The notes beneath the pieces are model-generated. The model was not told the DNA's origin, ran no database searches, and worked only from the letters and a program-made list of their open reading frames with translations. A stretch of DNA of 64,000 bases from an uncultured Pseudomonadales bacterium (lineage in GTDB: Bacteria; Patescibacteriota; Microgenomatia; UBA1400; UBA12028), in contig CAZDWN010000001.1 of NCBI GenBank assembly GCA_964509365.1, positions 80,143-144,142 of the forward strand. The letters run 5' to 3'. The stretch's first letter is position 1, and each line of letters starts with the position of its first letter. Both the position numbers and the translations under genes were made by a program. This document shows, piece after piece, positions 24,151 through 62,720 of this stretch.

Positions 24151-24183
24151 TTCATCATAGTGGCAAGAAAATAAAATTACAAG

Positions 24184-25287
24184 TTAGTTGCCAATGGATC
24201 TCGTCGCAAAATATGAGGAGTTACCAAACTCAAGTTCCTCACCATCTTTCGGATACTTTCCATTCACCAAGTCTTTAAACAGTTTTGCCTGATTTGCATA
24301 TGCATCATGGTATGCAATGACGACATCACAAAATTCTGTGCATTTGCTCGCATCTAAGACTGTGTCCTTACCGGATGGGTTGCGCTGAGGCAACGCGATC
24401 ACTATCTGACGCGAATCTATTTTGGCCTGAAACTCATCCCAATCCATGAATCGAGCACCGTTGGCACCATTTTGCGTTACCGCGTACGATTTTACCTTAT
24501 TACCGTTATCCAATGGGTACACCAAGTTATTAAATACAATATTTACCTTCACTCCATCTTTCGGTTCATACACAAAGTGAATTCGCTCGACAGATGCTGA
24601 AAGATCTTTTTGTAGTGCCTCACTATAGAACGTGGTTTCGACCACCTCAGTTTTTACGATTCTTCCCCCGATCGCCCAACCTGGATGGTACGGTTCCTTC
24701 CCTGGGAGGATTCTCACTTTCAGATCATTACTTTGAAACTTTGTGCCTTCGATATTGAGCTCGTACGGTTTTCCAGGGTCAATAGCGACTGCATCTAATG
24801 CTGCCAATGTTGGGTCTTTAACTTCTTTGACTGTCGAAGGTTTTGCAGGTTTTACGGTGAGATCCTCTTTTGTGTATAAAATGTATCGATCAGTACTGTC
24901 GCTGACACGAAAGAGTACCTTGCCGTTGTCAGAGACGCCTTCCCATGTGACCACGGAAATCGTCGCAGTATCAGCTATCTTAAATCTGTTTTTCATGTCG
25001 CTGATGACGTCTGCGAGATCGCCAAAATTCTCTGCGGGGGTAAATATGGGGAGCACTTCATTGCCCTTGAGGACGATCGCCATGGCGATTTCTTGCTGTT
25101 GTACTGGCGTTGGCTCTGGTTCCTGCAGAACTAATTCAATTGATTTGTCATTGATAGGCTTTGTCTCACCACGGTCTTGGTTTGCCAAGACGCTGCCTTG
25201 GAAAAGAAACGCTGCAACAGCGATGACGGCAGGTCTTTCAACCTTCTGAATCATTTCTTCTATTTGTTTTCGTAGTTCAGCAGACAT
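24184..25287 (-). CDS. hypothetical secreted protein
   Basis: 367 aa with an N-terminal hydrophobic segment; no recognised motif. Confidence 0.45.
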   Translation of the reverse strand: MSAELRKQIEEMIQKVERPAVIAVAAFLFQGSVLANQDRGETKPINDKSIELVLQEPEPTPVQQQEIAMAIVLKGNEVLPIFTPAENFGDLADVISDMKNRFKIADTATISVVTWEGVSDNGKVLFRVSDSTDRYILYTKEDLTVKPAKPSTVKEVKDPTLAALDAVAIDPGKPYELNIEGTKFQSNDLKVRILPGKEPYHPGWAIGGRIVKTEVVETTFYSEALQKDLSASVERIHFVYEPKDGVKVNIVFNNLVYPLDNGNKVKSYAVTQNGANGARFMDWDEFQAKIDSRQIVIALPQRNPSGKDTVLDASKCTEFCDVVIAYHDAYANQAKLFKDLVNGKYPKDGEELEFGNSSYFATRSIGN

Positions 25288-25326
25288 ATTTACCTTATAG
25301 CTTTTACTATGAGTCCGACTCGTGGT

Positions 25327-25354
25327 AAAAAAAGAACCGCCTGAGCGGTTTTAT
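25327..25354. terminator. conserved hairpin aaccgc-ctga-gcggtt flanked by A7 and a T-run
   Basis: about 42 nt upstream of the 25287 start; near-copy of the hairpin at 31261-31285. Confidence 0.45.
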
Positions 25355-25486
25355 GCACAATCCAGACTTCTTCGGGTTTCCCTCTCGAGGAAAATGCGAT
25401 ACAGAAGTGAGAAAAGTCTCATTAAATAGTAAGTATATACCATAGGTTGGCACTCGTCAATTGCTATAGGCCATGGCTGAGCTTAC

Positions 25487-26296
25487 TTGCGTAGAGTCGT
25501 CTTTCTCTTGTATGCTGGAGCTAGTATGAAGTCGATCGTGGCAGTTGCCGTCCTGTTTGGTGTCCTATCCCTAGGCATCGGTACCTATTTTGTCTCCACC
25601 GGGCGTGCCCCTCAAATGATCTCTCGGGCTGCACCGGAGACGAGTGTGCTCTCAAATCTGATTGACGACTGCGACTTTATCGCCCTCCCAAACTGCAGCG
25701 ATCGCACTTCCGGGAAATCGCTTGCAGTCTTTATCACGGAAGAGACTGAACAATTGATTCGAGACAATGCGCCGAAATCAGTCGTGGATTATCGAGAGAC
25801 CGTCTCGCCCGACTTGTTCAATGACCTAGGCAACCCTATCGTTCTGCCGACCAAACAAGTCTATTCAGTCGGAGATATCTTATCGAGAATCTCGTTGTCG
25901 TCAGACATTGACAATCGTTTACTCGTCGCTCTGTTTATGTCGCAAGGGTCAAAGGCCTGGGATGGTCAATCGAGTCTTTCTAATCCACTCAGTCGCAAGG
26001 AATCCTCATTTTCTGGCCAATTTGCGCAAGCAGCGATAGAGCTTCGCGATGGCTTTCACTCGCAGCTCGAATTTCCCACCAATTCAGTGACCAACGGCAC
26101 CACAAATTATCCATTTGATTCTGGATATGTGAGTACATCCTCGCGCGCATTGTATGCATATTTGGCCCGCACGAGTTCGCAAGCGGACTTTAAACGAATT
26201 GTTTCTCTGTCACAAGCGGAGCCAACATCATTTCGCGCGGTGTGGAAATTGATCCATCCAGTCGCTCCAAAAAAAGTAATTGAGAATTTGTATTAA
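25487..26296 (+). CDS. membrane-anchored protein, partner paralog B
   Basis: paralog of 19073-19861; its 3' end overlaps giant paralog B by 4 nt. Confidence 0.55.
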   Translation: MRRVVFLLYAGASMKSIVAVAVLFGVLSLGIGTYFVSTGRAPQMISRAAPETSVLSNLIDDCDFIALPNCSDRTSGKSLAVFITEETEQLIRDNAPKSVVDYRETVSPDLFNDLGNPIVLPTKQVYSVGDILSRISLSSDIDNRLLVALFMSQGSKAWDGQSSLSNPLSRKESSFSGQFAQAAIELRDGFHSQLEFPTNSVTNGTTNYPFDSGYVSTSSRALYAYLARTSSQADFKRIVSLSQAEPTSFRAVWKLIHPVAPKKVIENLY

Positions 26297-28800
26297 GGGT
26301 TCACTTCTTTCCAAATGTACGACGGGGTTTTCAGTTTGTCTGGAGCGTTTTGGATCAGGTCAGGTCTATAGATAAAGAGACTTGCTGGCCCTTTGTTGTT
26401 TTCGACGCCGTTGTTCCCATAGCGAAAATCTCGTGGCAAGCTGATACCAGATCGAGCTGCAAACGTCCCTTCTCCGATGAACTTCTTTTCGCTGCCTGCG
26501 ATCGTGGAAGTCGCCACTGTGAGTGTGCCATCAGCAAAGTACATGCCCTGCACTTGTCCTCCACTTGTCTGCGCCGAGAATGGCAAGGTTGCGGTACCGA
26601 CATCTTTACTGATGGAGATATTTCCCTTGACGATAAAGCCGATGAATCCACCTTTCGTCAACGTGATTGAATTATTGATGATCAAATTTCCTTTGACGAA
26701 CACGACGATTTTGTCTGCCGCGCCGACATTCCATGGAGTGTTGATCGTGAGGTCAGTATCCTGATAATAAAAATCTTTGCAGGTTGCGCCGCCACATGGT
26801 TTCGTTGCATTGCTCCCAGCCCCGAAATCATTCCCAAGACTTAGGCCCACACTAAACAATCGATAGAAATAGTCGTAACTATCTTTGATCAGTGGATTTG
26901 TGCCCACTTTGATGAGGCGTGAAGGACTGCCGACATTACTATCTTGCGATCCTGACGGATTACTCTTTAAGTCAGCATTTGCACCAGAGTTGATGAGCAG
27001 CGCGCCAAGACTATTTGCATTCCCAGAGGTCAGTCGCGTAGAGAGATTCGGATCGCAGCCGGTGATCGCGCAGAATTCTGTCGGGATTGGATCGTCGACT
27101 GCATTTCCGGACGGTGCCAACGCGGCGATGTCACCACCGACCGTTTGATACCAACTATTTGCGACAGGACTCAAGTAAAATTTGAGTGCAGGGCTCAGCG
27201 GCACCGTTTTAGAAGAGTATGTGCAACCGGCGGGACACGTGCAGTAGTAATTACTCAGTGGTGAAAGCGTGATGTCATAGTTGGCGTTCATGTTTGGCAC
27301 GTTGTTGATCGTCGCCGTACTTCCACTGACACTCCCATAGTACGTGAGTCCATTGGAGATTCCTTTGGCTTGGATCGCACCGCCACCGGAAAATGCCCTG
27401 CCTGTGCTTGGTGATGTACACTGCTCAGTCGAACCACTTCCAGTTCGGCTCGGCGCTGTCCCATTCGTCAATTGCGGATCTTCTTCGAGCGTCATCGTCA
27501 CATTGCTGGAACATGTACTCAATGTATAGTCCTGCGATCGACCGACCGTTGACGCCGGTGTACATGCCCCTGACGTGCTACTGGCCGTCACCAGTGAATG
27601 ATAGGTACCTGGCAAGAGTTGCAGATCGATATGGCATGTACCGCCTGCCGGACAACCCATTTGCGTTCCCGTTTGTGTAATTGGGGCGATGACGACATTA
27701 TCATTTTGATCTCGTATTTCGACGGTGTATCGATTTGCAAATGGGATCGCGAGCCAATTCCAACGAATGGTGGTCAGAGTTGTCGGTGTGGCTGCGCAGA
27801 CTCCCGACGCCGGATCGAGCGGTACTGGAGTGATACACTGGACCGGCGGTAACGGTCTTGGATTCGCCTGGATTTGCATGTACTGGTCGGGGCCTTTGAC
27901 GAGATACCCTGGACACGTAGTAAACCCATTCACTTTGAATTGAACAATTCCCGGAGACGTCGCTTTAAATCCGCACACCCAGTAGTGAGGAGAGGTCGCG
28001 TTGTAATAGACGTAGCCGCCTGAATAACAGGATACGGGCGTCGTATTCCCGGTCAGCGCCTGAAATGAGAAAGCGCTCGTACACGTGTCGTTGATAGGAT
28101 AGGCGACGGTGTAGAACCCATCGCCGACGAAGACGCTACTTTTTGCTGCAGCCGGTTGCGCAGCTGCATAGCTGTCCACCACATACAGTGAGAGTGATGC
28201 AGGTGGAGGATTGTTACTCCCCTGTCCGCATCCAGATGGATCCCACACACATGCACCACTCGGATTTGTGCGACACTGTGTCTGATTGGTGCCTGGGCAG
28301 CCACTACAACCGCCACAGGCTCCATACCCACTACTGCCATTTCCAGGTCCGCTGCCGCCACTACTTCCATTCACCCAGCAGCCGTAGGTGAGGTTTTGAG
28401 CACTCTCCATACAAGTTGAGTTCGAGCTTCCACCCCCGGAACACGTGGTGATCGACCCATTAAACTGACAACTCGGAGCTCCCGAGCAACCCACTGTCTG
28501 CGATCCCGTTGTCGCACACCAAGGTGGACCTGAGAGTGAGAAGTTATCACAGACTTGAATACACGATCCTTGTGCCGGACCACAATCACTTGGAACTTTT
28601 CCCAATGTACACGCGGTCAATGAATACGAACACTTTGAGCTGTATTGTGTGCAGACAGATGGTCCGCTGGTACATGCATATTGGTTGATGATACGAGATG
28701 GAGCGCAAGTCTGGGCATGGACTTTGCTCGTCTGTGACTGGATCGCAAAAAAGAAGACCGTGAGGGTCAGAATTCGTGCAATGTGCAAGACTTGCTTCAT
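26293..28800 (-). CDS. giant secreted Cys-rich surface protein, paralog B (835 aa)
   Basis: signal peptide, Cys/Gly/Ser-rich N-region, and a C-terminal ~400-aa module and tail GPASLFIYRPDLIQNAPDK..YIWKEVNP shared with A and C. Confidence 0.75.
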   Translation of the reverse strand: MKQVLHIARILTLTVFFFAIQSQTSKVHAQTCAPSRIINQYACTSGPSVCTQYSSKCSYSLTACTLGKVPSDCGPAQGSCIQVCDNFSLSGPPWCATTGSQTVGCSGAPSCQFNGSITTCSGGGSSNSTCMESAQNLTYGCWVNGSSGGSGPGNGSSGYGACGGCSGCPGTNQTQCRTNPSGACVWDPSGCGQGSNNPPPASLSLYVVDSYAAAQPAAAKSSVFVGDGFYTVAYPINDTCTSAFSFQALTGNTTPVSCYSGGYVYYNATSPHYWVCGFKATSPGIVQFKVNGFTTCPGYLVKGPDQYMQIQANPRPLPPVQCITPVPLDPASGVCAATPTTLTTIRWNWLAIPFANRYTVEIRDQNDNVVIAPITQTGTQMGCPAGGTCHIDLQLLPGTYHSLVTASSTSGACTPASTVGRSQDYTLSTCSSNVTMTLEEDPQLTNGTAPSRTGSGSTEQCTSPSTGRAFSGGGAIQAKGISNGLTYYGSVSGSTATINNVPNMNANYDITLSPLSNYYCTCPAGCTYSSKTVPLSPALKFYLSPVANSWYQTVGGDIAALAPSGNAVDDPIPTEFCAITGCDPNLSTRLTSGNANSLGALLINSGANADLKSNPSGSQDSNVGSPSRLIKVGTNPLIKDSYDYFYRLFSVGLSLGNDFGAGSNATKPCGGATCKDFYYQDTDLTINTPWNVGAADKIVVFVKGNLIINNSITLTKGGFIGFIVKGNISISKDVGTATLPFSAQTSGGQVQGMYFADGTLTVATSTIAGSEKKFIGEGTFAARSGISLPRDFRYGNNGVENNKGPASLFIYRPDLIQNAPDKLKTPSYIWKEVNP

Positions 28801-29363
28801 AGCGTTGCGACCATTTGTGGCTGAATACTATAGGTGTTTGGAGTGATTTCTTTGGCTTGGAGGAGCGCCTCCATTGGCGGCACGAGGCTTTTGACAGCGT
28901 CGGCATCCGTCTTCGTGACGACGACTCGGACCTCGATCGACGTTCCTGTTTTGAGTGACGATAAGATCTCCGATACTTTTTGCATCTTCCAAGGCAATTG
29001 ACCTTTCGTATCGAGATCAGCAAAATTGATTTGTGACACACCTTGAGCGAGCATGACACGAACAGGAATTTTCTTCTCATCGCCTTCGATCGCTATATCC
29101 ATCGCATACAGGCCAGAGTAGTCTTTTGGAGCCGTGAGGATCGTCCCTCTCACTGTATAAATCGTTTGATCATTACTTGGTTCGTTTTTGCGGACAAAAT
29201 ATTTTGGATTGCGAGTCTCTTGTATTGTCGGCGTTTGCTCGGTACTGACAGCCACAAATTCCTTTTTCGCCGCACTCCCACTTCGGCGTGTCGCCCAAAA
29301 AACGAGTCCAGCAAGGAGTGTGAAAAAAATGACGAGGACAATGAGGACAGAATACGATTTCAT
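28797..29363 (-). CDS. hypothetical N-terminally TM-anchored protein
   Basis: 188 aa; overlaps the giant gene start by 4 nt, the same layout as 23557-24150. Confidence 0.45.
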   Translation of the reverse strand: MKSYSVLIVLVIFFTLLAGLVFWATRRSGSAAKKEFVAVSTEQTPTIQETRNPKYFVRKNEPSNDQTIYTVRGTILTAPKDYSGLYAMDIAIEGDEKKIPVRVMLAQGVSQINFADLDTKGQLPWKMQKVSEILSSLKTGTSIEVRVVVTKTDADAVKSLVPPMEALLQAKEITPNTYSIQPQMVATL

Positions 29364-29414
29364 GCTACTTTCTAGAGTAGCTGTATCTGATCAGTATTTC
29401 AAGCAGTTATGGAA

Positions 29415-30812
29415 TTATTGTGGGAACACAATGAATGAGGCCGGATAATAGATGCCAGGCTGCATTTGACCTTGTAAGGTGCCGAATCGAACATCAACAT
29501 CGTAATTATTTGCAGGAAATGTACCTGCCGCCGTATTCTTAGCAAGATCTTGAGCAATCGCGATATACGCTGCTCTTACATCTGGGCTGTACCCTATATT
29601 GTTAGCCACCAATTTAATCTGCAATTTTGCACCATTCGGCAGATCTCGCAGTTGTTTCAATATTTCACTCATGTCCAAACTAAGAGGAGCTTTGTCCCCA
29701 ATTGCTAGATCCATTCGTCCTTGCGAAGCAATCGGTATGAGCGCCGCAAAAACTGTATCATTGCCGCCCACCCATTGAACCAGACAGAATGAATATTTTT
29801 CTGTACCGTACATGACCTCGTGTTGCGTACAGTCTGCTAAGGCAACTGTGAGCATCGTTGGTTCTCCGGTCTCAGCATCGATGGAGAATCCGGTTGGACC
29901 AATTTTTTTTACTTCTTCGAGCGACAACATACTTGTAGGTACAAATTTATTGTCGATCAACTCCTGTAGCAATGGAGTGGCAGCTTTCCAGACTGAGGAA
30001 AGGACAATTCCTTCAAATCCTGGAATCTTTAATTCTTTCGTGCTTGATCCGGTCTCCGCAACTGCGGCATTTGTTTCGATAATAAGTTGTAGTCTCTCTC
30101 CACTAAGACCCTTCTGCGCTACCCACTTCCCACTCACTAGCTTGTACCATGTAAGATCGCCATCCGTAAGGGTTTCACCGGTAAAATATTCTTTTGTTCC
30201 AGTGACAAATTTGGTCGCAGGAAAGTTGACCCCTGGACCAGTTCGCAAGTTCGCGCCTTCGACAATATTGATTTGTGCTTTGAAAATAGAAAATTTTGCT
30301 TCCGCAGCGGTGTGAAAAGTTTTGGACTTTTGAGATGCATCTATAGCTTTGAAATTGAGTACGACGTACTCTGGAGTGCCGCCCACGCTGACTTCAAGCA
30401 ATACCACGTCACCCATGTTGACGTCAGGAGAATCCCAGCTTAGTGTATTGACGAGTGAGTCTGGCGTCAGATCCATGACTTTTGCAAGTTGCGAAAGTAT
30501 TTCAGGGGATGCAGGGACGCGAGTGACTGGGATTTCAGCTCCATTGACGGTGAGCGCTAGAGCGATATCGGTCCCGAGTGGATCTTCACCAGTGGATTGT
30601 TCAATATCACGCGGGATGTGCTGCGCCCAAAGATCTGAAGTGACGATCGTACTGTCGCCTTCATTTTTCCCAGAATTACTTTCTACAGTTTTGGAGTTTG
30701 CGGAGATTTCTCCGGCGTTTGCAGCGACGATGAGGCCCATTGCACCCGCGGCGAGTACAGCTTTATTCTTTAGAGTTCTCAAGAAATTTTTCTTTGGTTC
30801 CATCTCTCCCAT
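29415..30812 (-). CDS. secreted protein with an SH3b-like domain
   Basis: signal-like N terminus; GANLRTGPGVNFPATKFVTG...DLTWYKLVSGKWVAQKG resembles bacterial SH3. Confidence 0.5.
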   Translation of the reverse strand: MGEMEPKKNFLRTLKNKAVLAAGAMGLIVAANAGEISANSKTVESNSGKNEGDSTIVTSDLWAQHIPRDIEQSTGEDPLGTDIALALTVNGAEIPVTRVPASPEILSQLAKVMDLTPDSLVNTLSWDSPDVNMGDVVLLEVSVGGTPEYVVLNFKAIDASQKSKTFHTAAEAKFSIFKAQINIVEGANLRTGPGVNFPATKFVTGTKEYFTGETLTDGDLTWYKLVSGKWVAQKGLSGERLQLIIETNAAVAETGSSTKELKIPGFEGIVLSSVWKAATPLLQELIDNKFVPTSMLSLEEVKKIGPTGFSIDAETGEPTMLTVALADCTQHEVMYGTEKYSFCLVQWVGGNDTVFAALIPIASQGRMDLAIGDKAPLSLDMSEILKQLRDLPNGAKLQIKLVANNIGYSPDVRAAYIAIAQDLAKNTAAGTFPANNYDVDVRFGTLQGQMQPGIYYPASFIVFPQ

Positions 30813-30849
30813 ACTACCTTATCTTTCAGGTTGTCTCATGAGTCAAATC

Positions 30850-31218
30850 TCATTCTCGCTTAAAGCAACCAATCTCAACCAACTCACCAAACTGATTTGG
30901 GAACTCCCCAATCACGGTGACTTTTGCTCCGTTTGGACCTTGCTCAGACGGCGGTTCCAGTTGAAAAGTGTGAGGGTTGATAAACGTAGAATCATGAAGA
31001 TTGAGAACTGCGTCGCACTGAGCGATAAGCGAATCAAGATCAGCAGGTTGAGCTGGAATTGGTTCACCGGTTGGCGACTCAGAACGCACTGCTAAAATTG
31101 CTCCAACGGAGATCAAGACTATAGCTGCGGCAGTTTTTAGTCGATCAATGATCTTTGGATCAATTGGCGATTCAGGTGTTCCAAATCCTACGGTTTCTTT
31201 AGTCTTTTGTGTTGCCAT
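30850..31218 (-). CDS. hypothetical protein with one hydrophobic segment
   Basis: 122-aa ORF preceded by the conserved hairpin. Confidence 0.4.
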   Translation of the reverse strand: MATQKTKETVGFGTPESPIDPKIIDRLKTAAAIVLISVGAILAVRSESPTGEPIPAQPADLDSLIAQCDAVLNLHDSTFINPHTFQLEPPSEQGPNGAKVTVIGEFPNQFGELVEIGCFKRE

Positions 31219-31260
31219 ATGTATAACTCATAGCGATTTACTATAAGTTTTGTAGTAAGT

Positions 31261-31285
31261 AAAAAAATGACCGCCTAGGCGGTCT
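31261..31285 (-). terminator. intrinsic terminator gaccgcc-tag-ggcggtc with a T7 run on the minus strand
   Basis: perfect 7-bp stem 150 nt past the paralog C stop; sequence relative of the hairpin at 25327-25354. Confidence 0.55.
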
Positions 31286-31430
31286 GAACAATTTGCAATG
31301 CGCTCTCGAGGAGATTGACATCTTCCCTCAGTGGAACGAACTCTCTTTGCTTCATTAAATACAAAGTATATACCTCTTTGTCAAGGAACGCAATATACTA
31401 TGGGACTTACAGATAAGTTTGAGGTGTACA

Positions 31431-33869
31431 TCAAGGAGAGACTTCTCGCCAATTATAGGAAGATGTGCGCATCCGAGGAGGAGCATTCTTGACGAAGTCA
31501 GGTCGGTAGATAAACAACGCTCCAGGGAATGTGTTGTTGTCCAAGCCTACGTCCGCCCTGGCATAGTCTCGATCGATCTTGATGCCACCACAGGCAGCAT
31601 ATGTCCCTTCCGCTACGAGTTTCTTCTCTTCAGTCACTCCCCCTCCCAAGACTTTGATGCTGTTATTGGCGATAAAGACTCCTTGGACTTGCCCAGGGCC
31701 AGTACTACTATGGTTACTTGTCCCCACATTTGCTCCGATCTGTATATCTCCAGAGACGATGAATGCGAGGAAGGCGTCTGTCGGGACGGTGATGTTTGCA
31801 TTGACGTGAAGATCGCCATTGACAAAGACGACGATCGTATCCCCACTCTGGACATTCCAATCACTAGCGATCGTCAATGGGAGCGCGCCACTGTAATAGT
31901 ATGCAGACTTTCCATTGCTTGGCGAGCTGCCTTTGGCAGGCATCACTGCATTCGCTGGATTTTGGAAATCAGAGCTTGGATTGATACCCATACTATAGAG
32001 ACGATAAAAGTAAAGGTAGTTTTCGTTGCACTGGAGAGCGTTCGTGAGTTTCACCGAGTGGTCATCCGGTGATGCAGCGATAGTACCTGACAGGAAATTG
32101 ACGACTGAGCGCGCCATCGTGATCAAGGCTCCAATCGAGTTTTTACTGATTCCCAGTGGCAGTGAGAGAAATGGATGACAGTACGGCTCGACGCAGCCAG
32201 CTGGGATAGTGTCACCCAGTGCGACTCCCCCATCCACTTGAGCGGCGACATCGCCACCCATTGTTTGATACCAAGCTTTCCCGATCGGCGTGACATAAAA
32301 TTTGAGGTCTTCGGTCGTTGGAGCACTTTTTTGGTGATACTCACATCCTGCTGGACAGCTACAGGTATAGTTTGGATCCGACGGAGTGAATTTAACGGTA
32401 TACGTGCCATCTGCTTGCGGGAGACTCGAAATTGTATATGTGCCATCTCCTTTTATCGAACCACGATATGGGGCCGCGACGCCATTCAGTGCTTCCACCG
32501 ACCCAAAGGTAAATGCGTCACCAGTATCGGGGGAGCTACAGTACTTTGACAAAAATCCTATTGCAGTTGGCTTTGTCCCGCCTTTGAGAGACGGATCCGT
32601 CTCTACATGCGAGGTAATCGATGCGAGAGGTGTGGCAGTCGGTTTTGGCGTTGGTGTCGGCGTAGGGACTGCGGTAGGCGTAGCTGTGGGTTTTGCAGTC
32701 GGAGTGGCCGTCGGCCTCACAGTTGGTGACGCACTCGGATTTGCAGTGGGAGTCGGTGTGGGTACAGTGCCATTGCACGCAGCTTGATTCAACTCGATCA
32801 CATAGCCAATAGATTTTCCGCCACAGAAGAGATCAAGTTGCCACTTGCTACAGATTGGTCCCATGCCAAGCACGATACTCGCGCCTGGCGCCAGTGTTTG
32901 CGTCCCATTAGAGTCCGCCAGTTTATCCCATCGATCCAAGAGCCAATCAAACGTCGCAGGTGTAGTTGAGATATTTTTGACGATGAATTTATCTGTAGTG
33001 TTCCACATGATCGGATCTGGATACGGATTCGTGGTCAGTTGACTGAGGCTACAATTTGCTACGGGTGCAGGAGTTGGACTCGGTGTCGGCGTCGCTACTT
33101 TAGTCGTGAAGTTGAGAGTCAGTACAGAGCTCGTACAGGCGGAGCCAGATGACTGAGCTGTTGCAATTCGCATGGTGTAATCAGTATTGGCTTTGTAGGT
33201 ATATGGCCAGCCACGAGGATTTTGGTACATGATCTCGCCACCAGTCACTTGCGCATTAAACTCATATGAGCCTGGGACGCCCACACTGTGATCGTCGATA
33301 TTGAGATAATAGATCGTAGCGACAGTGCCGCCTGGAGCGCTAAAGAATGGATAGTATTGTCCTGGAGCTATCACTGCTCCATTGGCGATGCCGGCAGGGA
33401 TCGACCAGCGCCAGACTGGAGTCCCAGGTGCACCCAGGGTACCACAGACGTTATTCGTGCAGTTTGGATATTGGAAACTCCCCATTCCTTGCCAAGTGTT
33501 GGTGCTTGCCATGCATTGAATACACACATATGGAGGTCCTGCATTTCCACTCGCATTGCATACTGCTCCCGGAGTCGCTGGACCACAGTTTGGGTTGTAG
33601 TTACCGCACAGTGGTCCTGTATACCCACTACTACACGCATTACCGACAGGATGATCTGCTGGACACGTACGGCAAGAAGGATCAGTGCCGCAATCATCAC
33701 CTTGATTTTTCCAGTAGATATCGTTACTACAGGCGTTACATTTGGTTGGATCATTCCCAGGACTTTCGCAGCAGGTACGGCCGGCAAATGCGTGCGGAGC
33801 TTTGACAAACGAGATCATTCCAAACAGGATAAAAAAAAGTGCGAGTGAACGGATCCGAGCGACAGACAT
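31431..33869 (-). CDS. giant secreted Cys-rich surface protein, paralog C (812 aa)
   Basis: signal peptide; N-domain CGNYNPNCG...PPYVCIQC...VWRWSIPAG..YYPFFSAPGG nearly identical to A; Pro/Thr-rich linker; C-terminal module and tail PGALFIYRPDFVKNAPPR..YNWREVSP. Confidence 0.75.
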   Translation of the reverse strand: MSVARIRSLALFFILFGMISFVKAPHAFAGRTCCESPGNDPTKCNACSNDIYWKNQGDDCGTDPSCRTCPADHPVGNACSSGYTGPLCGNYNPNCGPATPGAVCNASGNAGPPYVCIQCMASTNTWQGMGSFQYPNCTNNVCGTLGAPGTPVWRWSIPAGIANGAVIAPGQYYPFFSAPGGTVATIYYLNIDDHSVGVPGSYEFNAQVTGGEIMYQNPRGWPYTYKANTDYTMRIATAQSSGSACTSSVLTLNFTTKVATPTPSPTPAPVANCSLSQLTTNPYPDPIMWNTTDKFIVKNISTTPATFDWLLDRWDKLADSNGTQTLAPGASIVLGMGPICSKWQLDLFCGGKSIGYVIELNQAACNGTVPTPTPTANPSASPTVRPTATPTAKPTATPTAVPTPTPTPKPTATPLASITSHVETDPSLKGGTKPTAIGFLSKYCSSPDTGDAFTFGSVEALNGVAAPYRGSIKGDGTYTISSLPQADGTYTVKFTPSDPNYTCSCPAGCEYHQKSAPTTEDLKFYVTPIGKAWYQTMGGDVAAQVDGGVALGDTIPAGCVEPYCHPFLSLPLGISKNSIGALITMARSVVNFLSGTIAASPDDHSVKLTNALQCNENYLYFYRLYSMGINPSSDFQNPANAVMPAKGSSPSNGKSAYYYSGALPLTIASDWNVQSGDTIVVFVNGDLHVNANITVPTDAFLAFIVSGDIQIGANVGTSNHSSTGPGQVQGVFIANNSIKVLGGGVTEEKKLVAEGTYAACGGIKIDRDYARADVGLDNNTFPGALFIYRPDFVKNAPPRMRTSSYNWREVSP

Positions 33870-38829: not shown

Positions 38830-39987
38830 TTAGACTGATTGGGTCTGCTTCAGTTCGTCATGCAGGACAGCCTGGAGTTCGTCGTGAGTGATGATTTTTA
38901 CAAGTTTTTGCGATTTCTCATGGAGGGCGCGATATCGCGGTTCGAGATCCTCATCTGACTCCCCATCCACTTTATTGAGGATTCCGTCGATAAACTTGGG
39001 TACAAGCGTGAGAGTCTGAGTCGAGAGTTTTGCTTTTTTTTCGCTCTTTTCGCGCTCTGCTTTCAATATCTCCTCCCCCAGCTTCACTCCAGCTTGAGTG
39101 CGAAATTCTTTTAACGTAGGATATTTTTGCAAAAATTCGAGCAACCAGGCAGTACGACCACTCTCGCCAATGACCACCATGTCTCTATTTTGAATAAAAT
39201 TACGCTCTACTTCCTCGACGGTAATTCCTCCGCCATTATAGACCGCGGCCATACTTCTGGCCTTTTCACCACGAGACTTCTGTTGTAATGCCTCGGCAAC
39301 TTTAAAGAATACTTCAGTTTCGTCTCCAAAGTTGTCTCCTTCGACGAGAACTGAGTGTGTATGGTTGGGCTCGATCACTTCCATATCAGCAGGCTTCTTG
39401 TCCTTCTCGCCTTTCCATACTTGTGCAGATGGTGAGATACCGACGAGCGCTACGTCGATTTTTTCTTTGAGGAGTTGCTCTCGGACTTTTCCAGCAATTT
39501 GGATGATTCCTGAATCAGTACCACCGGTGACCATCACCGGGCGCTTTCCTTCTTGTACTACTTCCTTCAGTTGAGAGCAGAAAGCGTCCACCAGTTTTTG
39601 CTGTTCACCACCCTCGGACTTATCCATGAAGCCAGCACCCCCGTTGAACAGGAGTACAAAGTCAAACGGCGACGCTTGGGTTTGCGTATCGTAGAGTTTG
39701 AGATCTGCGAGCATCTTCTGGACAGCCGATGTATCAGCATTCTTGGGAATCTCTGCGGTCTGTAAACCTGCTTTATCAAGATTAACGACAGGCACTTCGA
39801 CCATCGCAGTACCAGGCTTCTCTTGTGTTTCTTCTACTGCCATCTCTCGCTTCACGGTGGTGGGCCATTCTCCTCGTATCCTGGCCATATTGATGTTATC
39901 TTCCGCACGTAGCGGATTCATCTTTCCATTCATGCTTTCTTTCATAGTGGTTACCCACTCGGTGATCTTATCCATATGTGCCTCCAA
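38830..39987 (-). CDS. Rossmann-fold LOG/SLOG-like protein with N- and C-terminal extensions
   Basis: VMVTGGTDSGIIQIAG and AAVYNGGGITVEEVE resemble the LOG-family glycine motifs; weak assignment. Confidence 0.35.
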   Translation of the reverse strand: MEAHMDKITEWVTTMKESMNGKMNPLRAEDNINMARIRGEWPTTVKREMAVEETQEKPGTAMVEVPVVNLDKAGLQTAEIPKNADTSAVQKMLADLKLYDTQTQASPFDFVLLFNGGAGFMDKSEGGEQQKLVDAFCSQLKEVVQEGKRPVMVTGGTDSGIIQIAGKVREQLLKEKIDVALVGISPSAQVWKGEKDKKPADMEVIEPNHTHSVLVEGDNFGDETEVFFKVAEALQQKSRGEKARSMAAVYNGGGITVEEVERNFIQNRDMVVIGESGRTAWLLEFLQKYPTLKEFRTQAGVKLGEEILKAEREKSEKKAKLSTQTLTLVPKFIDGILNKVDGESDEDLEPRYRALHEKSQKLVKIITHDELQAVLHDELKQTQSV

Positions 39988-41788: not shown

Positions 41789-42448
41789 CTATTTAGAGAG
41801 CCTGGTTAGGCCGTATTCAGAGGTGATCCATCCGAGAGTAGATTCGTTGATTCGTATCTGGTACCAGCCATTGGAGATGACATCGGCAAATGAGATGTAC
41901 CACCCGCTTGGCAAGACGCCGATTTGTGTGGACTGTAAGCTTGCGCCGTTGCGGATTCGCACATTGATTCCAGGGATGATTGCCTGGACGCTGGCGGCCG
42001 CAGTTTGGAGTTTTGACCCCATGATTGGAGCCGACGGGACTCGAGAAGACCTTTGAGCAGACACGGTGTTTGAGGTGCGAGCGACTGCATTCCCATTGAC
42101 TACATACGTCAGCGTCTCGCTAGTAGGGAGCATTCCGTTTGGATCATCTTTCGAGACGACACGCACAGTGACCGTATAGGTTCCAGGTCCAAAGGTAAAT
42201 CCATTGGTATCCCAGATTCCTTCCGAGATGACCGAGGAACGCACGACGTACGACACTGACGCTACTTCTGAAGGACATGAGGTATCGGCAGTAAATCGGA
42301 CACTGGTCCCTGCCGCTACTGGTGAGGCTGGACTCCCCCGAAAATTGGAGATCGTGCAGTCACCCATTGCAAACGCCTGCTTTGGACTTCGAAGAGTACC
42401 GAAGAGGACAGAGATGATGACGATGGCACAAACGATTGGCTTTTTCAT
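41789..42448 (-). CDS. secreted SH3b-domain protein
   Basis: signal peptide; NGWYQIRINESTLGWITSEYG SH3b-type C terminus. Confidence 0.5.
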   Translation of the reverse strand: MKKPIVCAIVIISVLFGTLRSPKQAFAMGDCTISNFRGSPASPVAAGTSVRFTADTSCPSEVASVSYVVRSSVISEGIWDTNGFTFGPGTYTVTVRVVSKDDPNGMLPTSETLTYVVNGNAVARTSNTVSAQRSSRVPSAPIMGSKLQTAAASVQAIIPGINVRIRNGASLQSTQIGVLPSGWYISFADVISNGWYQIRINESTLGWITSEYGLTRLSK

Positions 42449-43029
42449 TGAGCCTGTATTCTACCTCAAAACTGCTCAAAAAGCTAGTTATAGGCTCATC
42501 AATTGAATGTTTTCGAAGACTATTTGCGACTAGTGTGAATATGAGAGTTTTCTTCGGGACGTCAATTCGAGTTGTGAATCTTTTTATTTGGTGGGTGCCA
42601 ACAATATTGATGCTCACTTTTTCAATCTTTCAGTTTCTCAACATTGAGACAACTTTCGCAGAAAAAATATTGATCGTTCCTCTAACGTTGGTATTGTTTG
42701 TAATGGGATACACGTTTTTCTTCATCGTAAGCTTTGTCTACTGGTTTCCTCTGGCGCTATTCATGAGACTGCATCCTGAGGTAGATGATCTTCAAAATTG
42801 GAAGCAAGGGTTGCTTCTTACCTCGAACTTGCTGATTTGTGCCATTTTTATACTCATGAGCTTTTGGTGCAGTCTTGATTATTCCTGTTACAGTGAAGGA
42901 TCACTCTCAAGCGGTGGTGGAGTCATCACGTGGTTTTTCCTCTCACTTCTTTTTGTGACTAGACCGTTTATTCTCTTTTTTGATTTTCCAAAGGCTTCAC
43001 CACCCGCGGAGCGCGCGGAGGAAAAATAG
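42436..43029 (+). CDS. hypothetical polytopic membrane protein
   Basis: 197 aa with four or more hydrophobic helices. Confidence 0.4.
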   Translation: MAFSLSLYSTSKLLKKLVIGSSIECFRRLFATSVNMRVFFGTSIRVVNLFIWWVPTILMLTFSIFQFLNIETTFAEKILIVPLTLVLFVMGYTFFFIVSFVYWFPLALFMRLHPEVDDLQNWKQGLLLTSNLLICAIFILMSFWCSLDYSCYSEGSLSSGGGVITWFFLSLLFVTRPFILFFDFPKASPPAERAEEK

Positions 43030-43332
43030 GAGGACTTTTTTGAAGCCATGGGCGCGCTGATAGCTTTGCCAGGAGCGGTGCTTTTTCTCGTCAAAAGTTC
43101 CAGGGAACGGAGGATTGCACCAGGCGGAGATGACGATATGCTTGCCACCATCTTTCTTGACGATGAGTGTCACCAGTCTCCCGCTGACCATTTTGCGATA
43201 CTCGCTCGTGCCGTACTCTTTGCCACTGTACGACTCATCTGGATGATAAAACGCCTGCGTCGCTATAAACTCTGGCAGACGACGTTCTTTCATTCGGTCC
43301 CGTGCATGATTCGTAAAAATAAGCTGTGCCAT
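42997..43332 (-). CDS. DUF4258-family toxin-like protein
   Basis: HARDRMKERRLPEF motif characteristic of DUF4258, then the typical K..G...IV..W pattern. Confidence 0.55.
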   Translation of the reverse strand: MAQLIFTNHARDRMKERRLPEFIATQAFYHPDESYSGKEYGTSEYRKMVSGRLVTLIVKKDGGKHIVISAWCNPPFPGTFDEKKHRSWQSYQRAHGFKKVLLFFLRALRGW

Positions 43333-43344
43333 ATCTTAATTGTA

Positions 43345-43385
43345 CTGATCTCCTGATCGCCTTGTCCACTGATCGCCTCGTCTGC
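43345..43385. repeat. GATC-rich octamer tandem repeat in a divergent promoter region
   Basis: ctgatctcctgatcgccttgtccactgatcgcctcgtctgc. Confidence 0.5.
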
Positions 43386-43395
43386 TGTATACTTT

Positions 43396-45543
43396 ATGAA
43401 GATGAGTACCCCATTGACCACTACCTTTGAGATACGCACGCCACGCAATAGCGAGTTGACGCCTGAGTCAGCTGGCCATTTTTTTGCTACACTTCCAAAT
43501 CCACCGACGGGTGTATTCAACTGGTTTGCCAAAGCGCCATCGATCACTGTGGAGTTCTTAAGCCAAGGACAGACAGTGTTCACTTTGCTCACCGTCCCGA
43601 CGGATCATGAAGAGTACTTCGTGACGCAATTGTCAGCAGCCTACCCGCAAGTGCGCATAAAAAAGCTGGAGCACAATCCTCTCGATGCTTTTTCACTCAC
43701 CGCTCCGATCGAAGTCGGACGTCTGCGATTATCCTCAGGTACCTATCTCCCGATCAAGACCTATAGAGAGACTGCCCCAAATGATCCACTGACCAATATA
43801 TTCTCTACTCTTGCGAAGCTTGGCGAAAATGAGCAAGCGATGATCCAGTTTGAGATTCACAAAGCGACCGAGCATTGGAAGCACGGAGGTCACAAAGCTG
43901 CCGAGGGACATATCTCAAATGGCGTCGCCGTTCCCCACCCTCAAAAAGCGCAGATTGAGACGAAGCTCTCCCAATCGTCATTTGGTGTCTGTATTTCGAT
44001 CGTGGCACAAGCGCAGACGCAGGAGCGCAGCAATCAAATCTTGCGGTCATTGCAATCAGCATGCACGAGTGTCGATCTTCCGTATCAATCGCTGCGACTC
44101 ACGCAGCCACTGTTGAGAAAGACTCGATTTGCTGAGCAGATTCTCCATCGAACGGTGCCCTACTCCCATCAATATTTGAGTACCGATGAGTTGGCGACGC
44201 TGGTACATTTGCCAAATAAGAACTTCTCAGCGATCAACAACATTGCTTGGGGCAAGACACTTCAGGGAGAGCCACCAGAAAATCTTCCGACATTTGGGAG
44301 TTTATCCGAAGAAGAGCGTGCGAACGTCAATTTATTTGGCCGAGTGCAGTTCAAGAACCAAGATCAAATATTCGGGATCAAGCGCGAAGACCGCAGGCGA
44401 CACATGTATGTCTTGGGGAAAAGTGGGACCGGAAAATCGACACTCCTGGCAAACATGATCATCAGCGACCTAAAGCACAATGAAGGGATTGCGGTCATCG
44501 ATCCACATGGTGATTTGATCGAGACGGTGCTCGAGTACATTCCCAAACACCGCATCAATGATGTCATTCTCTTGGATCCAGCTGATCCTGAAGCAGTCGT
44601 AAAGATGAACTTATTTGAAGGTGGCTCGATGGTGCATCGAGAGTTGATCGCGTCAGGGATCGTCTCCATTTTCCAAAAGATGTATGCGCACTCCTGGGGA
44701 CCTCGGTTGGAGTACATCTTGCGAAACACCCTGCTGACTCTCCTCTCTGAGCAAGCCAAGCTTGATGATATCTTGCACATGCTGACTGATGACAAGTTCC
44801 GGGCAAAAGTCGTGGATCGCCTGCAGGATCCGGTGCTCAAAAACTTTTGGGTGACAGAATTTAATACCATGACTGAAAAGCAACGTATTGAGGCGATCTC
44901 CCCGATTCTCAATAAGGTCGGTCAATTTGTGACGTCTCCATTGGTGAGTGGCGTGGTCAATGCGAAGACCAGTTCATTTAACATCGAAGAAGTGATGGAT
45001 CAAGGCAAGATCTTATTGGTAAATGTATCGCAAGGCAAACTGGGTGAGGATAATGCGTCACTGTTGGGTGCGATGCTTATCACCAAGATCCAGCTCGCTG
45101 CGATGAATCGCGTCTATAAGAGCGAAGAGAGCCGACGAGATTTTTACCTCTATATCGACGAGTTCCAAAATTTTGCCACGACCAGTTTCGTAAAGATTTT
45201 ATCTGAAGCGAGAAAATATCGGCTCAATCTCACGCTCGCAAATCAGTATATGGATCAGATTCCAGAGGAAGTGAAAGCCGCGATCTTTGGCAATGCCGGG
45301 ACGATATGTAGCTTTATCTTAGGTGCCAGTGATGCTGACGCCATGATGAAAGAATTTGGTCAAAAGTACACGCAAGAGGATTTAGTATCGCTTGAGCGCT
45401 ATCAGATCATCACCAAGCTCATGATCGACAACCAGATGAGTCAGCCATTCCCTGCGGCGACCTTGTCGCTCTCCAATTCCAAAAATCAAAACAAAGATAA
45501 AGTCCTTCGCTCCTCTCGCGAACGATATGCGCGGAAGAAATAG
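43396..45543 (+). CDS. TraD/VirD4/HerA-like P-loop ATPase with a ~330-aa N-terminal domain of unknown function
   Basis: Walker A LGKSGTGKST and Walker B FYLYIDEFQNF; C-terminal TraD/TraG-like hallmarks. Confidence 0.6.
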   Translation: MKMSTPLTTTFEIRTPRNSELTPESAGHFFATLPNPPTGVFNWFAKAPSITVEFLSQGQTVFTLLTVPTDHEEYFVTQLSAAYPQVRIKKLEHNPLDAFSLTAPIEVGRLRLSSGTYLPIKTYRETAPNDPLTNIFSTLAKLGENEQAMIQFEIHKATEHWKHGGHKAAEGHISNGVAVPHPQKAQIETKLSQSSFGVCISIVAQAQTQERSNQILRSLQSACTSVDLPYQSLRLTQPLLRKTRFAEQILHRTVPYSHQYLSTDELATLVHLPNKNFSAINNIAWGKTLQGEPPENLPTFGSLSEEERANVNLFGRVQFKNQDQIFGIKREDRRRHMYVLGKSGTGKSTLLANMIISDLKHNEGIAVIDPHGDLIETVLEYIPKHRINDVILLDPADPEAVVKMNLFEGGSMVHRELIASGIVSIFQKMYAHSWGPRLEYILRNTLLTLLSEQAKLDDILHMLTDDKFRAKVVDRLQDPVLKNFWVTEFNTMTEKQRIEAISPILNKVGQFVTSPLVSGVVNAKTSSFNIEEVMDQGKILLVNVSQGKLGEDNASLLGAMLITKIQLAAMNRVYKSEESRRDFYLYIDEFQNFATTSFVKILSEARKYRLNLTLANQYMDQIPEEVKAAIFGNAGTICSFILGASDADAMMKEFGQKYTQEDLVSLERYQIITKLMIDNQMSQPFPAATLSLSNSKNQNKDKVLRSSRERYARKK

Positions 45544-61127: not shown

Positions 61128-62720
61128 TCACGCAGGATCTTGTTCGTAGTGGGTGCCGGTTTTGATGGATTCCTCGGCTTTCTGAAGTTCCAAACCGATA
61201 TACATGAGGTGACCGGGGATCGTGATGTAGTTCCAGTCAGTGATTTGCCAGGCTACTTCCTGAGCAGTGCGGCCTTCAAACATTTTGAGGGCAGGTCCTC
61301 CATTCGGTTCATAGATCGTAGCCCGAATGAGTTTCCCTCCCTCTTTTGGCATTTTCTTCAGCATGCGCTCGACCGCCATCGGTACAGACTCGTTTTCGTA
61401 GCGCTTCGACCAGTACGGAAAGCTCTGAGCATCAGACTCATTGATCACTTCGACGATGGCATTGCCTCGACTATCAAAATCAAAATGCACTTGCGGCGTG
61501 TATCCAAGTTCTTTCTCATAGTGTTTCATGAGCAGCTCATCGACGAGCGCAAAGTCATCAGCGTACATGTGAGCACTATGGGTGATCATGGTGAGCGGTC
61601 CCATCGCCATCCCGGCGCTGTCGGCAATATCTTTTTGAAGTTTGCGCAGTGCAAATGTATTGCGAGGCCAACCATGCACCATATCTTGACTGCGAAAGTG
61701 GCATGTAAAGAAAAATTTATCGTCCTGGACAGATCCTAAGACCATCGTGAGACAAGGAGTGTCGCCTTTGTTCGCTTCGGCCCAGTCACGTTTGGGATCG
61801 ATTGTGATCGCCACCATTTTTTTGCTATCGGGACGAAGTTGAATGAGTTTCTTTATCTCGTCGACTTGATTGACACCGAGATCTTCGCGCAGTCGTTTGC
61901 CATAATTGTAAGCGACTCCAGGGATAGACCTGGCAGTCATCATCTCAGCGTAGTAGGATTCGAGTTCAAATCGTGCGAATGGAAGATATTCGGGAAAATA
62001 AATTTCGTCGGGATCCTCATCAGTGATGACGGCAGTGAGATTCAAGATTTCTTTGAGACTATTATCTTTTGAGTATCTTGTGTGTTTCGGTCTGCCATAC
62101 TTTGATATCTCATTAAGTAGTTTGAGCCAGGTCATTGCCACTTTTGGCGAGCCGACGCGAAACCCAGATTGCTCACTTGGTAGGAGTTGGATCTTTGGCT
62201 CACTTCGTGGGAATTCTCGCGAACGTTTGGCAAATGGCTCGATTGTTTTTTCAGAGAGCTCTTTTGCTTTTGTGACCATCTCGACAGCAGTCTTCCCTCG
62301 CATATCCACGACCGCCACCATTTGCCGAAACTCTTGCAACATGTCTTCTGGGAGCATGTCTTCGATCTCTCCTCGTGCACCGACGATGCGTCGATTTTCG
62401 TCCACTCCGTTTTCAATAAATTTTTTGAGAGACTGCCCCGACTGGCTCATCTCTGCACCCCAGATCAAGATGACACGGATATGCGGATTCGCAAAGATAT
62501 TGCGGATCATCGCATTGATGCCTTGTGCGCTGTAGAGATTGCCGATGGTATTGTAGTCGACGTCCTTTAAAAGTCCTTCAACTGCCTGACGCTCTGTCCA
62601 GAGGCAGCAGATCGCCAAATGATGCTCAGGGTTTTTCACTTTGAGAACATCTTTATAAAATAGCGGCCAGTGGGACAAATCGATAGGCATCGCTGGTGAA
62701 CATAGCAAACCCAAAATCAA
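61128..62720 (-). CDS. thymidylate-synthase-fold enzyme with ~165-aa N-terminal and ~100-aa C-terminal extensions
   Basis: aligns by eye to ThyA: DSKKMVAITIDPKRDW...PC(L) ~ DSRRIIVSAWNP...PCH; RSQDMVHGWPRN ~ RSADMFLGVPFN; GPLTMITHSAHMY ~ GEFIHTLGDAHIY. Confidence 0.65.
   Translation of the reverse strand: MILGLLCSPAMPIDLSHWPLFYKDVLKVKNPEHHLAICCLWTERQAVEGLLKDVDYNTIGNLYSAQGINAMIRNIFANPHIRVILIWGAEMSQSGQSLKKFIENGVDENRRIVGARGEIEDMLPEDMLQEFRQMVAVVDMRGKTAVEMVTKAKELSEKTIEPFAKRSREFPRSEPKIQLLPSEQSGFRVGSPKVAMTWLKLLNEISKYGRPKHTRYSKDNSLKEILNLTAVITDEDPDEIYFPEYLPFARFELESYYAEMMTARSIPGVAYNYGKRLREDLGVNQVDEIKKLIQLRPDSKKMVAITIDPKRDWAEANKGDTPCLTMVLGSVQDDKFFFTCHFRSQDMVHGWPRNTFALRKLQKDIADSAGMAMGPLTMITHSAHMYADDFALVDELLMKHYEKELGYTPQVHFDFDSRGNAIVEVINESDAQSFPYWSKRYENESVPMAVERMLKKMPKEGGKLIRATIYEPNGGPALKMFEGRTAQEVAWQITDWNYITIPGHLMYIGLELQKAEESIKTGTHYEQDPA

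Follow-up and report, generated by a model that had tools for sequence, protein, structure and literature searches.

A VirD4-branch ATPase with a predicted VirB4-like N-terminal fold and a neighboring toxin-fold gene on a Patescibacteria chromosome

The Divergent Gene Pair

This study concerns two divergent genes in a 64-kb window, that is, the whole stretch of 64,000 nucleotides that was analyzed (contig CAZDWN010000001.1, positions 80,143 to 144,142; Patescibacteriota, Microgenomatia). The larger gene, on the plus strand, encodes a P-loop ATPase, and the smaller one, on the minus strand, encodes a DUF4258-like protein. Both open reading frames (ORFs) were found where an original prediction, made from the nucleotide sequence and a list of its ORFs, had placed them. 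All coordinates are those of the window, ATPase residue numbers refer to the protein as drawn, and lengths are given in amino acids (aa). The features of the pair are as follows.

43396..45543, plus strand: ATPase gene, 715 aa as drawn; the probable start at 43402 gives 713 aa (ORF listing; Pfam)
43396..44385, plus strand: N-terminal domain, residues 1-330, DUF8128, with a predicted alpha/beta fold like that of the VirB4 N-terminal domain (annotation of homologues; structure model)
44176..44295, plus strand: linker motif S..E.A...H.PN....NIAWGK.L.GEPP..LP, residues 261-300 (conservation profile of 121 sequences)
44386..45540, plus strand: P-loop motor domain, VirD4/TrwB-like, residues 331-715 (hhalign; phmmer)
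44416..44442, plus strand: Walker A motif GKSGTGKST, residues 341-349 (sequence)
45151..45174, plus strand: Walker B motif YIDEFQNF, residues 586-593 (sequence)
43333..43395, no strand: divergent intergenic region of 63 bp (sequence)
42997..43332, minus strand: small gene, 111 aa, DUF4258-like, predicted RelE/BrnT fold (ORF listing)

Motor Domain of the ATPase

The motor half of the ATPase carries the Walker A and Walker B motifs that the original prediction had pointed out, and both are invariant or nearly so in 33 homologues. The invariant positions are G341, K342, G344, K347, and T349 in Walker A and Y586, D588, E589, F590, Q591, N592, and F593 in Walker B. The likeness of this half to the coupling proteins of type IV secretion systems (T4SSs), also predicted, is upheld by several comparisons. 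Three Pfam families match above their cut-offs, TrwB_AAD_bind at 37.9 bits (cut-off 20.5), DUF87 at 29.7 bits, and TraG-D_C at 23.8 bits, and the top NCBIfam models are TraD/VirD4-type conjugation models. When the family profile was aligned with R388 TrwB using hhalign, the match (95.1%, E 3.3e-8) extended over 257 columns, from query residues 328-624 to TrwB residues 117-393, covering both Walker motifs and the region between them. The region of the TrwB all-alpha domain falls within this span, where the alignment confidence is low. TrwB is also matched in a phmmer search of the PDB (E 2.3e-5). The corresponding alignment with R388 TrwK/VirB4 yields only 1.9% over 35 columns, all in the P-loop. 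No VirB4-specific Pfam family is matched by the ATPase, and its scores with VirB4-like NCBIfam models (24.3 and 21.7 bits) fall well short of the cut-offs. These comparisons place the ATPase in the VirD4/TrwB (type IV coupling protein) branch of the HerA/FtsK ATPases.

Conservation is uneven along the protein. Per-column values in the 121-sequence profile are 80-96% in the motor half versus 35-70% in the N-terminal domain. The linker between the two is nearly invariant (NIAWGK.L.GEPP..LP), with invariant columns at E265, H271, P273, W285, G286, K287, G291, E292, P293, P294, and P298. No transmembrane (TM) helix was detected in the ATPase when a 19-residue window reaching a Kyte-Doolittle value of 1.6 was used as the criterion; the maximum is 1.4 and lies inside the motor. 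The N-terminal region, free of any hydrophobic helix, is not the standard TraD/VirD4 membrane anchor that had been considered as its possible identity.

N-Terminal Domain of the ATPase

The first 330 or so residues had been described as matching nothing recognizable. This description is overturned by three results: the Pfam annotation of homologues, the fold predicted for the domain, and the existence of Gram-positive plasmid relatives. PF26449 (DUF8128) is annotated, in precomputed Pfam matches, at the N-terminus of most homologues, including those 98% (P0001) and 73% (P0004) identical to the window protein, and it is this annotation of its homologues that gives the window protein its DUF8128 label. 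A literature search for DUF8128 by name returned no papers.

Residues 1-330 were modeled with AlphaFold2 from an alignment of 30 sequences, and the model is confident, with a mean predicted local distance difference test score (pLDDT) of 91.6 and a predicted template modeling score (pTM) of 0.87. When this model was searched with Foldseek, the top 14 matches were all R388 T4SS entries, either TrwK/VirB4 or inner-membrane-complex structures, with a best E of 6e-6 and a query-normalized TM-score of 0.53. TrwK/VirB4 ranks first for the model by two independent methods. The model does not include the P-loop domain, and the TrwK match should therefore fall on the N-terminal domain of VirB4. These data indicate that the DUF8128 domain, as modeled, folds like the N-terminal domain of VirB4. 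In VirB4, this domain is the part that contacts the inner-membrane complex.

Plasmid Relatives and Comparison with Known Systems

A tblastn search of 72,556 plasmids gave matches in 596 records, 41 of which cover at least 80% of the ATPase query. The matching plasmids are mainly from Bacillus, Streptomyces, Staphylococcus, Clostridium, haloarchaea, and Sulfolobus. In the 27.5-kb plasmid NZ_CP154917 of B. subtilis and in pBMB65 of B. thuringiensis, the homologue heads a Gram-positive conjugation operon. A replication-relaxation gene lies directly downstream of it in both plasmids, and each plasmid encodes a separate VirB4-sized ATPase. Farther along, pBMB65 carries TcpD/TcpE-like genes and the B. 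subtilis plasmid a lytic transglycosylase. The plasmid homologues occupy the coupling-protein position. The similarity includes the N-terminal domain, the profile of which aligns with the N-terminus of the B. subtilis plasmid protein over 235 columns (96.9%, E 1.8e-10). Judged by these alignments, the two-domain ATPase of Patescibacteria is homologous to the coupling-position ATPases of monoderm conjugative plasmids. These Gram-positive proteins, named 'DUF87 domain-containing', have the same two-domain layout as the window ATPase, with tblastn alignments spanning residues 43-685, but the identity is just 23-25%. The B. subtilis protein is soluble, like the window ATPase, whereas its pBMB65 counterpart contains two TM helices and a tail rich in repeats. 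The plasmid genes adjoin a relaxase-type gene; in contrast, the window gene is chromosomal, stand-alone, and phylum-wide.

The window ATPase shares features with both T4SS ATPase families. Its P-loop motor is homologous to that of R388 TrwB, VirD4, and TraD. Those proteins have an N-terminal TM anchor, whereas the window ATPase lacks one and has its 330-aa, predicted VirB4-like domain in that place. Their genes are linked to relaxase and mating-pair-formation genes, a linkage absent for the window gene among the ORFs scanned. With VirB4/TrwK, the window ATPase shares the overall layout of an N-terminal domain followed by a P-loop motor and no TM helix, but sequence likeness is confined to the P-loop, and the gene has no adjacent VirB3-like gene. 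The coupling-protein homologues described in a survey of Patescibacteria (PMC12102498; Quinonero-Coronel et al. 2025) are near-universal and rarely found beside virB4, and homologues of the window protein carry similar names. The coupling-protein passages of that survey make no mention of the N-terminal domain or of a VirB4-like fold.

Distribution and Architecture of the ATPase Family

A homologue search of 5.8 billion proteins gave more than 4,292 matches. Each of the best 120 is full-length (~700-760 aa), with 54-98% identity to the query. Homologues with named sources come from Patescibacteria (Woesebacteria, Cerribacteria, and 'Patescibacteria group'), with 54-66% identity to the query across named lineages, and in NCBI and UniRef they are annotated as 'type IV secretion system DNA-binding domain-containing protein' or similar. 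Searching 1.84 billion representatives with the N-terminal domain profile gave 3,510 clusters at 50% identity. All 20 of the longer representatives that were scanned with Pfam have the N-terminal domain followed by the P-loop motor (DUF87, usually with TrwB_AAD_bind and TraG-D_C). Two subfamilies can be distinguished. Proteins of the first, which includes the window protein, are soluble, whereas those of the second have one TM helix at the N-terminus and in many cases a long C-terminal tail of low complexity. This division agrees with the survey, whose numbers imply about two copies per genome: it reports 5,713 VirD4-type homologues, only 148 of them near virB4, from 2,918 of the 3,035 genomes of Patescibacteria, as well as a separate, true VirB4 in this group (PMC12102498). 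Six homologue accessions are absent from two supplementary files of the survey, and our family may be the one that was counted there.

Some family members carry additional C-terminal domains. S1 RNA-binding domains are found in a soluble member (P0235), in a member of the TM type (P0282), and, by BLAST, in P0342, and one soluble member (P0239) has a NUDIX domain. Such fusions are rare, numbering three and one, respectively, among ~24 long-tailed representatives; most other long tails are of low complexity, with an abundance of basic residues, proline, or glutamine. The S1 fusions hint at a nucleic-acid substrate. There are also motor-only relatives of ~410-580 aa (L160, L154, and L170-L173), which have neither the N-terminal domain nor a TM helix and start exactly at the beta-hairpin preceding Walker A. 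Four of them are on viral or prophage-like contigs of IMG/VR. Relatives were found at 12 loci on viral or mobile-element contigs, and nearly all of these are motor-only.

Genomic Context of the ATPase

The ATPase gene is surrounded by housekeeping genes, among them rpsB, tsf, frr, secD/secF, folD, nfo, glyA, dNK, and pyrF-like genes and those for an RseP-like protease, prolyl-tRNA synthetase, and PRPP synthetase. No relaxase, VirB4, integrase, or other T4SS Pfam family was matched among the major ORFs scanned in the window, and no tRNA or Rfam element was found in it. The glyA-nfo-folD ... rpsB-tsf synteny and the divergent gene pair are kept in close relatives, whose ATPases are 86-87% identical.

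In the wider family, 86 ATPase loci of 36-98% identity were compared by clustering all ORFs within 3 kb. No conserved partner, relaxase, or T4SS neighbor recurs among them. The sole recurrent upstream neighbor is a sigma-70-family gene (~350 aa), which immediately precedes the ATPase in the same orientation in 11 of the 86 loci (e.g., L152, 1160-2212) and may reflect old synteny. SecD/SecF genes are nearby in seven, and look-ups of single loci revealed RNR, UvrD, TIM, and Lon genes adjoining the ATPase. Examination of the neighborhoods, which had been suggested as a way to choose among pili or competence, conjugation, and defense, pointed instead to these variable housekeeping genes, the kind of setting expected for a chromosomal gene that is passed on vertically. 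Together with the homologue searches, this pattern indicates that the ATPase is a chromosomal, vertically inherited, and strongly conserved member of a Patescibacteria-wide family.

Two further suggestions of the original prediction, that the locus is a remnant of a conjugative or of a defense module, are not supported. The ATPase gene is intact, its motor is strongly conserved, the family is near-universal in the phylum according to PMC12102498, and the setting is one of housekeeping genes. PADLOC returns matches to the motor domain only (mad8, 59.6 bits; HerA, at most 30 bits), and none of the five proteins scanned with it around the ATPase is a defense partner such as a nuclease, Sir2, or methylase. 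These generic, motor-only matches, the lack of partner genes, and the housekeeping surroundings speak against a defense module.

The Small Protein

The small protein contains FTNHARDRMKERRL, the hallmark on which its original identification as DUF4258 was based. The features of the protein are as follows.

43108-43332, minus strand: core, residues 1-75, predicted RelE/BrnT fold
43003-43095, minus strand: two extra C-terminal helices, residues 80-110, with a basic, aromatic-rich tail at the end

The DUF4258 identity stands in part: FTNHARDRMKERRL and the predicted toxin fold bear it out, but the sole Pfam match, DUF4258 (PF14076) at residues 6-70, reaches 23.9 bits and falls just below the 25-bit gathering threshold. 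A precomputed PF14076 match is present in ~10 of 100 family members. The structure model suggests a RelE/BrnT toxin fold with two extra C-terminal helices. About 100 full-length homologues were retrieved (109-131 aa, 35-80% identical), from Woesebacteria, Levyibacteriota, Daviesbacteria, Roizmanbacteria, and genomes labeled 'Parcubacteria', that is, mainly from Microgenomatia-type lineages. Residues T7, H9, R17, D32, S69, W71, P74, P75, G78, and G110 are invariant, and the basic-aromatic C-terminal tail is conserved. No relatives were found in viral contigs. Many of the small-protein records (L011, L012, L016-L018, and others) bear the title 'uncultured Gammaproteobacteria' or 'uncultured Pseudomonadales' bacterium. 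One contig so titled, CAZBKJ010000005.1 (L001/L012), also encodes a Patescibacteria-type ATPase, and these titles look like mislabeled taxonomy.

The protein shares the H-A-x-x-R-[ML]-x-x-R motif with RelE/ParE/BrnT toxins (DUF4258; BrnT 3u97). It differs from them in scoring below the Pfam cut-off, in having two extra conserved C-terminal helices, and in its lack of an antitoxin. The absence of an antitoxin-sized partner, as originally claimed, is confirmed both in the window, where the 548-bp downstream gap has no credible minus-strand ORF, and among relatives, where no antitoxin-like neighbor occurs across 80 species-representative loci and the commonest neighbor family is present in nine of the 80. 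The small protein behaves as a conserved single gene and not as a mobile toxin-antitoxin cassette.

Linkage of the Two Genes

The idea that the two genes form a conserved pair is contradicted by their distribution. The ATPase lies within 5 kb of the small gene at five of the 80 species loci, the small gene lies within 3 kb of the ATPase at none of 80 metagenomic ATPase loci, and on one Woesebacteria contig the accessions of the two proteins are 42 numbers apart. Where the genes do adjoin outside the window clade, the arrangements vary. In L001 (ATPase 73% and small protein 44% identical), the small gene immediately follows the ATPase gene and overlaps it by 4 nt, and the neighborhood is a different one. 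In L035, it is divergent beside a 43%-identical ATPase, and in L036 and L047 an unrelated gene separates the two, which are ~1.5 kb apart. We interpret the adjacency as leftover synteny or, at the very most, a loose association, rather than an obligate module. The small protein is a separate, solitary neighbor, the juxtaposition is lineage-limited, and the two proteins are neither a toxin-antitoxin pair nor obligate partners.

Intergenic Region and Start Sites

The 63-bp region between the two genes contains candidate promoter elements for both.

43388-43393, plus strand: TATACT box, 8 nt before the second ATG of the ATPase gene at 43402
43368-43363 and 43344-43339, minus strand: TGGACA and TACAAT with an 18-nt spacer, 6 nt before the ATG of the small gene

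The TATACT box is conserved in L005, L007, and L008, where it lies 7-8 nt before the start codon of the ATPase, and the orthologues in L005 and L008 are 713 aa long. Because of this conserved spacing and the length of the orthologues, the true start of the ATPase is probably at 43402, giving a product of 713 aa. The minus-strand promoter candidate matches the consensus at 10 of 12 positions, in a region no richer in promoter-like sites than shuffled sequence, and is at most suggestive. Both transcripts are probably leaderless, judging from the positions of these elements. The region had also been singled out as a GATC-repeat promoter. GATC is common throughout the window, with 548 sites (8.6 per kb, ~2.2 times expectation) and 21 clusters in which three or more sites fall within 30 bp; several of these clusters lie around 35.4-38.1 kb. 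The repeats are missing from the equivalent intergenic region of relatives. This window-wide abundance, the 21 similar clusters, and the lack of conservation rule out the repeats as a special regulatory feature.

Other Features of the Window

A putative ORF overlaps the downstream end of the small gene.

42436..43029, plus strand: orphan ORF, 197 aa from a TTG start or 162 aa from the ATG at 42541 (ORF listing; hydropathy)

It had been taken for a convergent membrane-protein gene. A hydrophobic ORF with about four hydrophobic segments is indeed present, but its status as a real gene is not borne out. It occupies a T-rich, low-GC (39%) gap of 548 bp (42449-42996) beside the small gene, the equivalent gap in close relatives measures only ~180-220 bp, no Pfam, NCBIfam, or PADLOC model matches it, and tblastn found no homologue in more than 160 fetched loci. 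It may be a lineage-specific gene or insertion, and it is part of the context, outside the ATPase and small-protein system.

Several other regions, all on the minus strand, are unusual. A 14-kb run of seven co-directional genes (19829-33869) has no convincing Pfam or NCBIfam match. It encodes three large Cys-rich proteins (1243, 835, and 812 aa) whose N-termini resemble signal peptides. Close to each are a small protein with a membrane anchor (197 or 188 aa) and another of intermediate size (367 or 465 aa), and the run looks like a set of repeated surface-protein cassettes. A 530-aa ORF (61128-62720) combines MtrA-like, thymidylate-synthase, and PterinBD-DUF4346 Pfam matches in an unusual fusion. 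A prokaryotic SLOG/LSDAT domain (100 bits) is present in the 385-aa protein encoded at 38830-39987, between rpsB and SH3-domain secreted proteins, and a 330-aa Fic/DOC-family protein (57 bits) is encoded at the window edge (62739-63731).

Proposed Role and Alternatives

We propose that the soluble, VirD4-branch ATPase docks on a T4SS-like apparatus via its VirB4-like N-terminal domain and that the small protein is a separate neighbor, a proposal to which we assign a probability of roughly 60%. By analogy with its relatives, the ATPase would form a ring. Its VirB4-like domain would replace the TM anchor by docking on membrane components of the Patescibacteria T4SS-like apparatus, much as its counterpart in VirB4 suggests. 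ATP would be spent feeding a macromolecular substrate into or out of the channel, and this substrate would most likely be a single-stranded nucleic acid or nucleoprotein. Several points weigh against the proposal. The TraD/VirD4-type NCBIfam models, while the best matches, score far under their cut-offs (SXT_TraD, 43.2 versus 366 bits; conj_TOL_TraD, 25.7 versus 647.55 bits; conju_CD1115, 39.8 versus 250 bits). The role of the N-terminal domain is extrapolated from VirB4 by fold alone, at ~10% sequence identity. The coupling-protein homologue of Candidatus Southlakia epibionticum, for which the DUF8128 type could not be shown, is described in PMC12102498 as non-essential for epibiotic growth, with other T4SS genes being essential, a result hard to square with a core role in this apparatus. 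As for the separateness of the small protein, adjacency of the two genes occurs in at least four arrangements (divergent in the window clade, overlapping in L001, divergent in L035, and downstream in L036 and L047), and five of 80 is somewhat above the ~1-2% that we estimate for random placement in a ~1 Mb genome, the cases being partly non-independent.

The main rival holds that the ATPase has been exapted from a T4SS and now acts as a free cytoplasmic nucleic-acid motor, in RNA or DNA import or processing, segregation, or repair, without a VirB-type channel; we consider it possible, although unlikely. PMC12102498 lends it substance, since only 148 of the 5,713 homologues are near virB4, the authors themselves do not dismiss exaptation, and the Southlakia homologue is dispensable. 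Wang et al. 2023 likewise describe an essential Southlakia T4SS without recognizable coupling and relaxase proteins, and a 2026 preprint reports host-RNA uptake by a cultivated Patescibacterium through a mechanism left unresolved there. The solubility of the window ATPase, the S1 and NUDIX fusions, and the sigma-70 and other housekeeping genes that are its usual neighbors are also consistent with such a motor. However, an exapted cytoplasmic motor does not readily account for an N-terminal domain with the predicted fold of the VirB4 N-terminal domain, for the finding that the closest annotated full-length relatives reside in conjugation operons, or for the membrane-anchored sister subfamily, and the fusions that favor it are rare (three and one among ~24 long-tailed representatives).

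The two remaining alternatives concern the locus as a whole. That the divergent genes form a functional module, in which the ATPase recruits or regulates a RelE-fold effector or toxin, as in HerA-plus-effector pairs for defense or abortive infection, or exports it as a substrate, is improbable. The several adjacent arrangements, including the 4-nt start/stop overlap in L001 and the pair beside a 43%-identical ATPase in L035, would fit a module, as would the absence of an antitoxin, which is expected of a non-classic toxin, the conserved basic-aromatic tail of the small protein, and the PADLOC mad8 (59.6 bits) and HerA matches of the motor. These matches are to the generic motor only, however, with no other defense match in the five proteins scanned, and the linkage counts (five of 80 within 5 kb, none of 80 within 3 kb), the Woesebacteria accessions 42 numbers apart, and the housekeeping neighborhood, which is not a defense island, all oppose a module. 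The ATPase family is, moreover, far more widespread than the small-protein family. Least probable of all is a decayed integrated conjugative element with the ATPase as its leftover coupling protein. The full-length, coupling-position relatives on Bacillus, Streptomyces, and Staphylococcus plasmids would suit this origin, and so would a toxin-fold gene nearby and an adjacent low-GC gap with an orphan ORF. Decay is nevertheless hard to reconcile with an intact ORF in which all catalytic motifs are invariant, with 54-98% identity to hundreds of chromosomal orthologues, and with the glyA, nfo, folD, rpsB, and tsf synteny conserved in relatives. Nor do the scanned major ORFs of the window include an integrase, relaxase, VirB4, or T4SS Pfam match, and relatives on viral or mobile-element contigs are few (12 loci, nearly all motor-only).

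Implications

Our results are mostly a clarification: the pair in the window joins an unremarkable chromosomal member of a known gene family with an unrelated orphan toxin-fold gene. The family was already annotated, VirD4-type homologues had been surveyed (PMC12102498), and the N-terminal domain is in Pfam. The fold assignment for DUF8128 and the link to Gram-positive coupling ATPases are absent from the relevant passages of the papers; no priority is claimed for them. Two bolder ideas are long shots. One is that the small protein, with its conserved basic-aromatic tail and its lack of an immunity partner, is a ribonuclease effector that the soluble DUF8128 ATPase recognizes and passes to the T4SS for delivery into the host bacterium. 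The other, which is independent of the first, is that DUF8128 ATPases constitute a third architectural class of T4SS ATPase, combining a VirB4-type N-terminal domain with a VirD4-type motor. If true, the effector reading would tie the DUF8128 coupling ATPase to host-RNA exploitation by epibionts, and the third class would bridge the VirB4 and VirD4 families.

VirD4-like ATPases lie away from the T4SS cluster in almost every Patescibacteria genome. The predicted VirB4-like fold, the homology to plasmid ATPases, and the split into soluble and TM-anchored subfamilies provide handles on their role. Returning to the proposal that the ATPase docks through its N-terminal domain, these results suggest which membrane partners to seek and how a coupling ATPase could work without a TM anchor.

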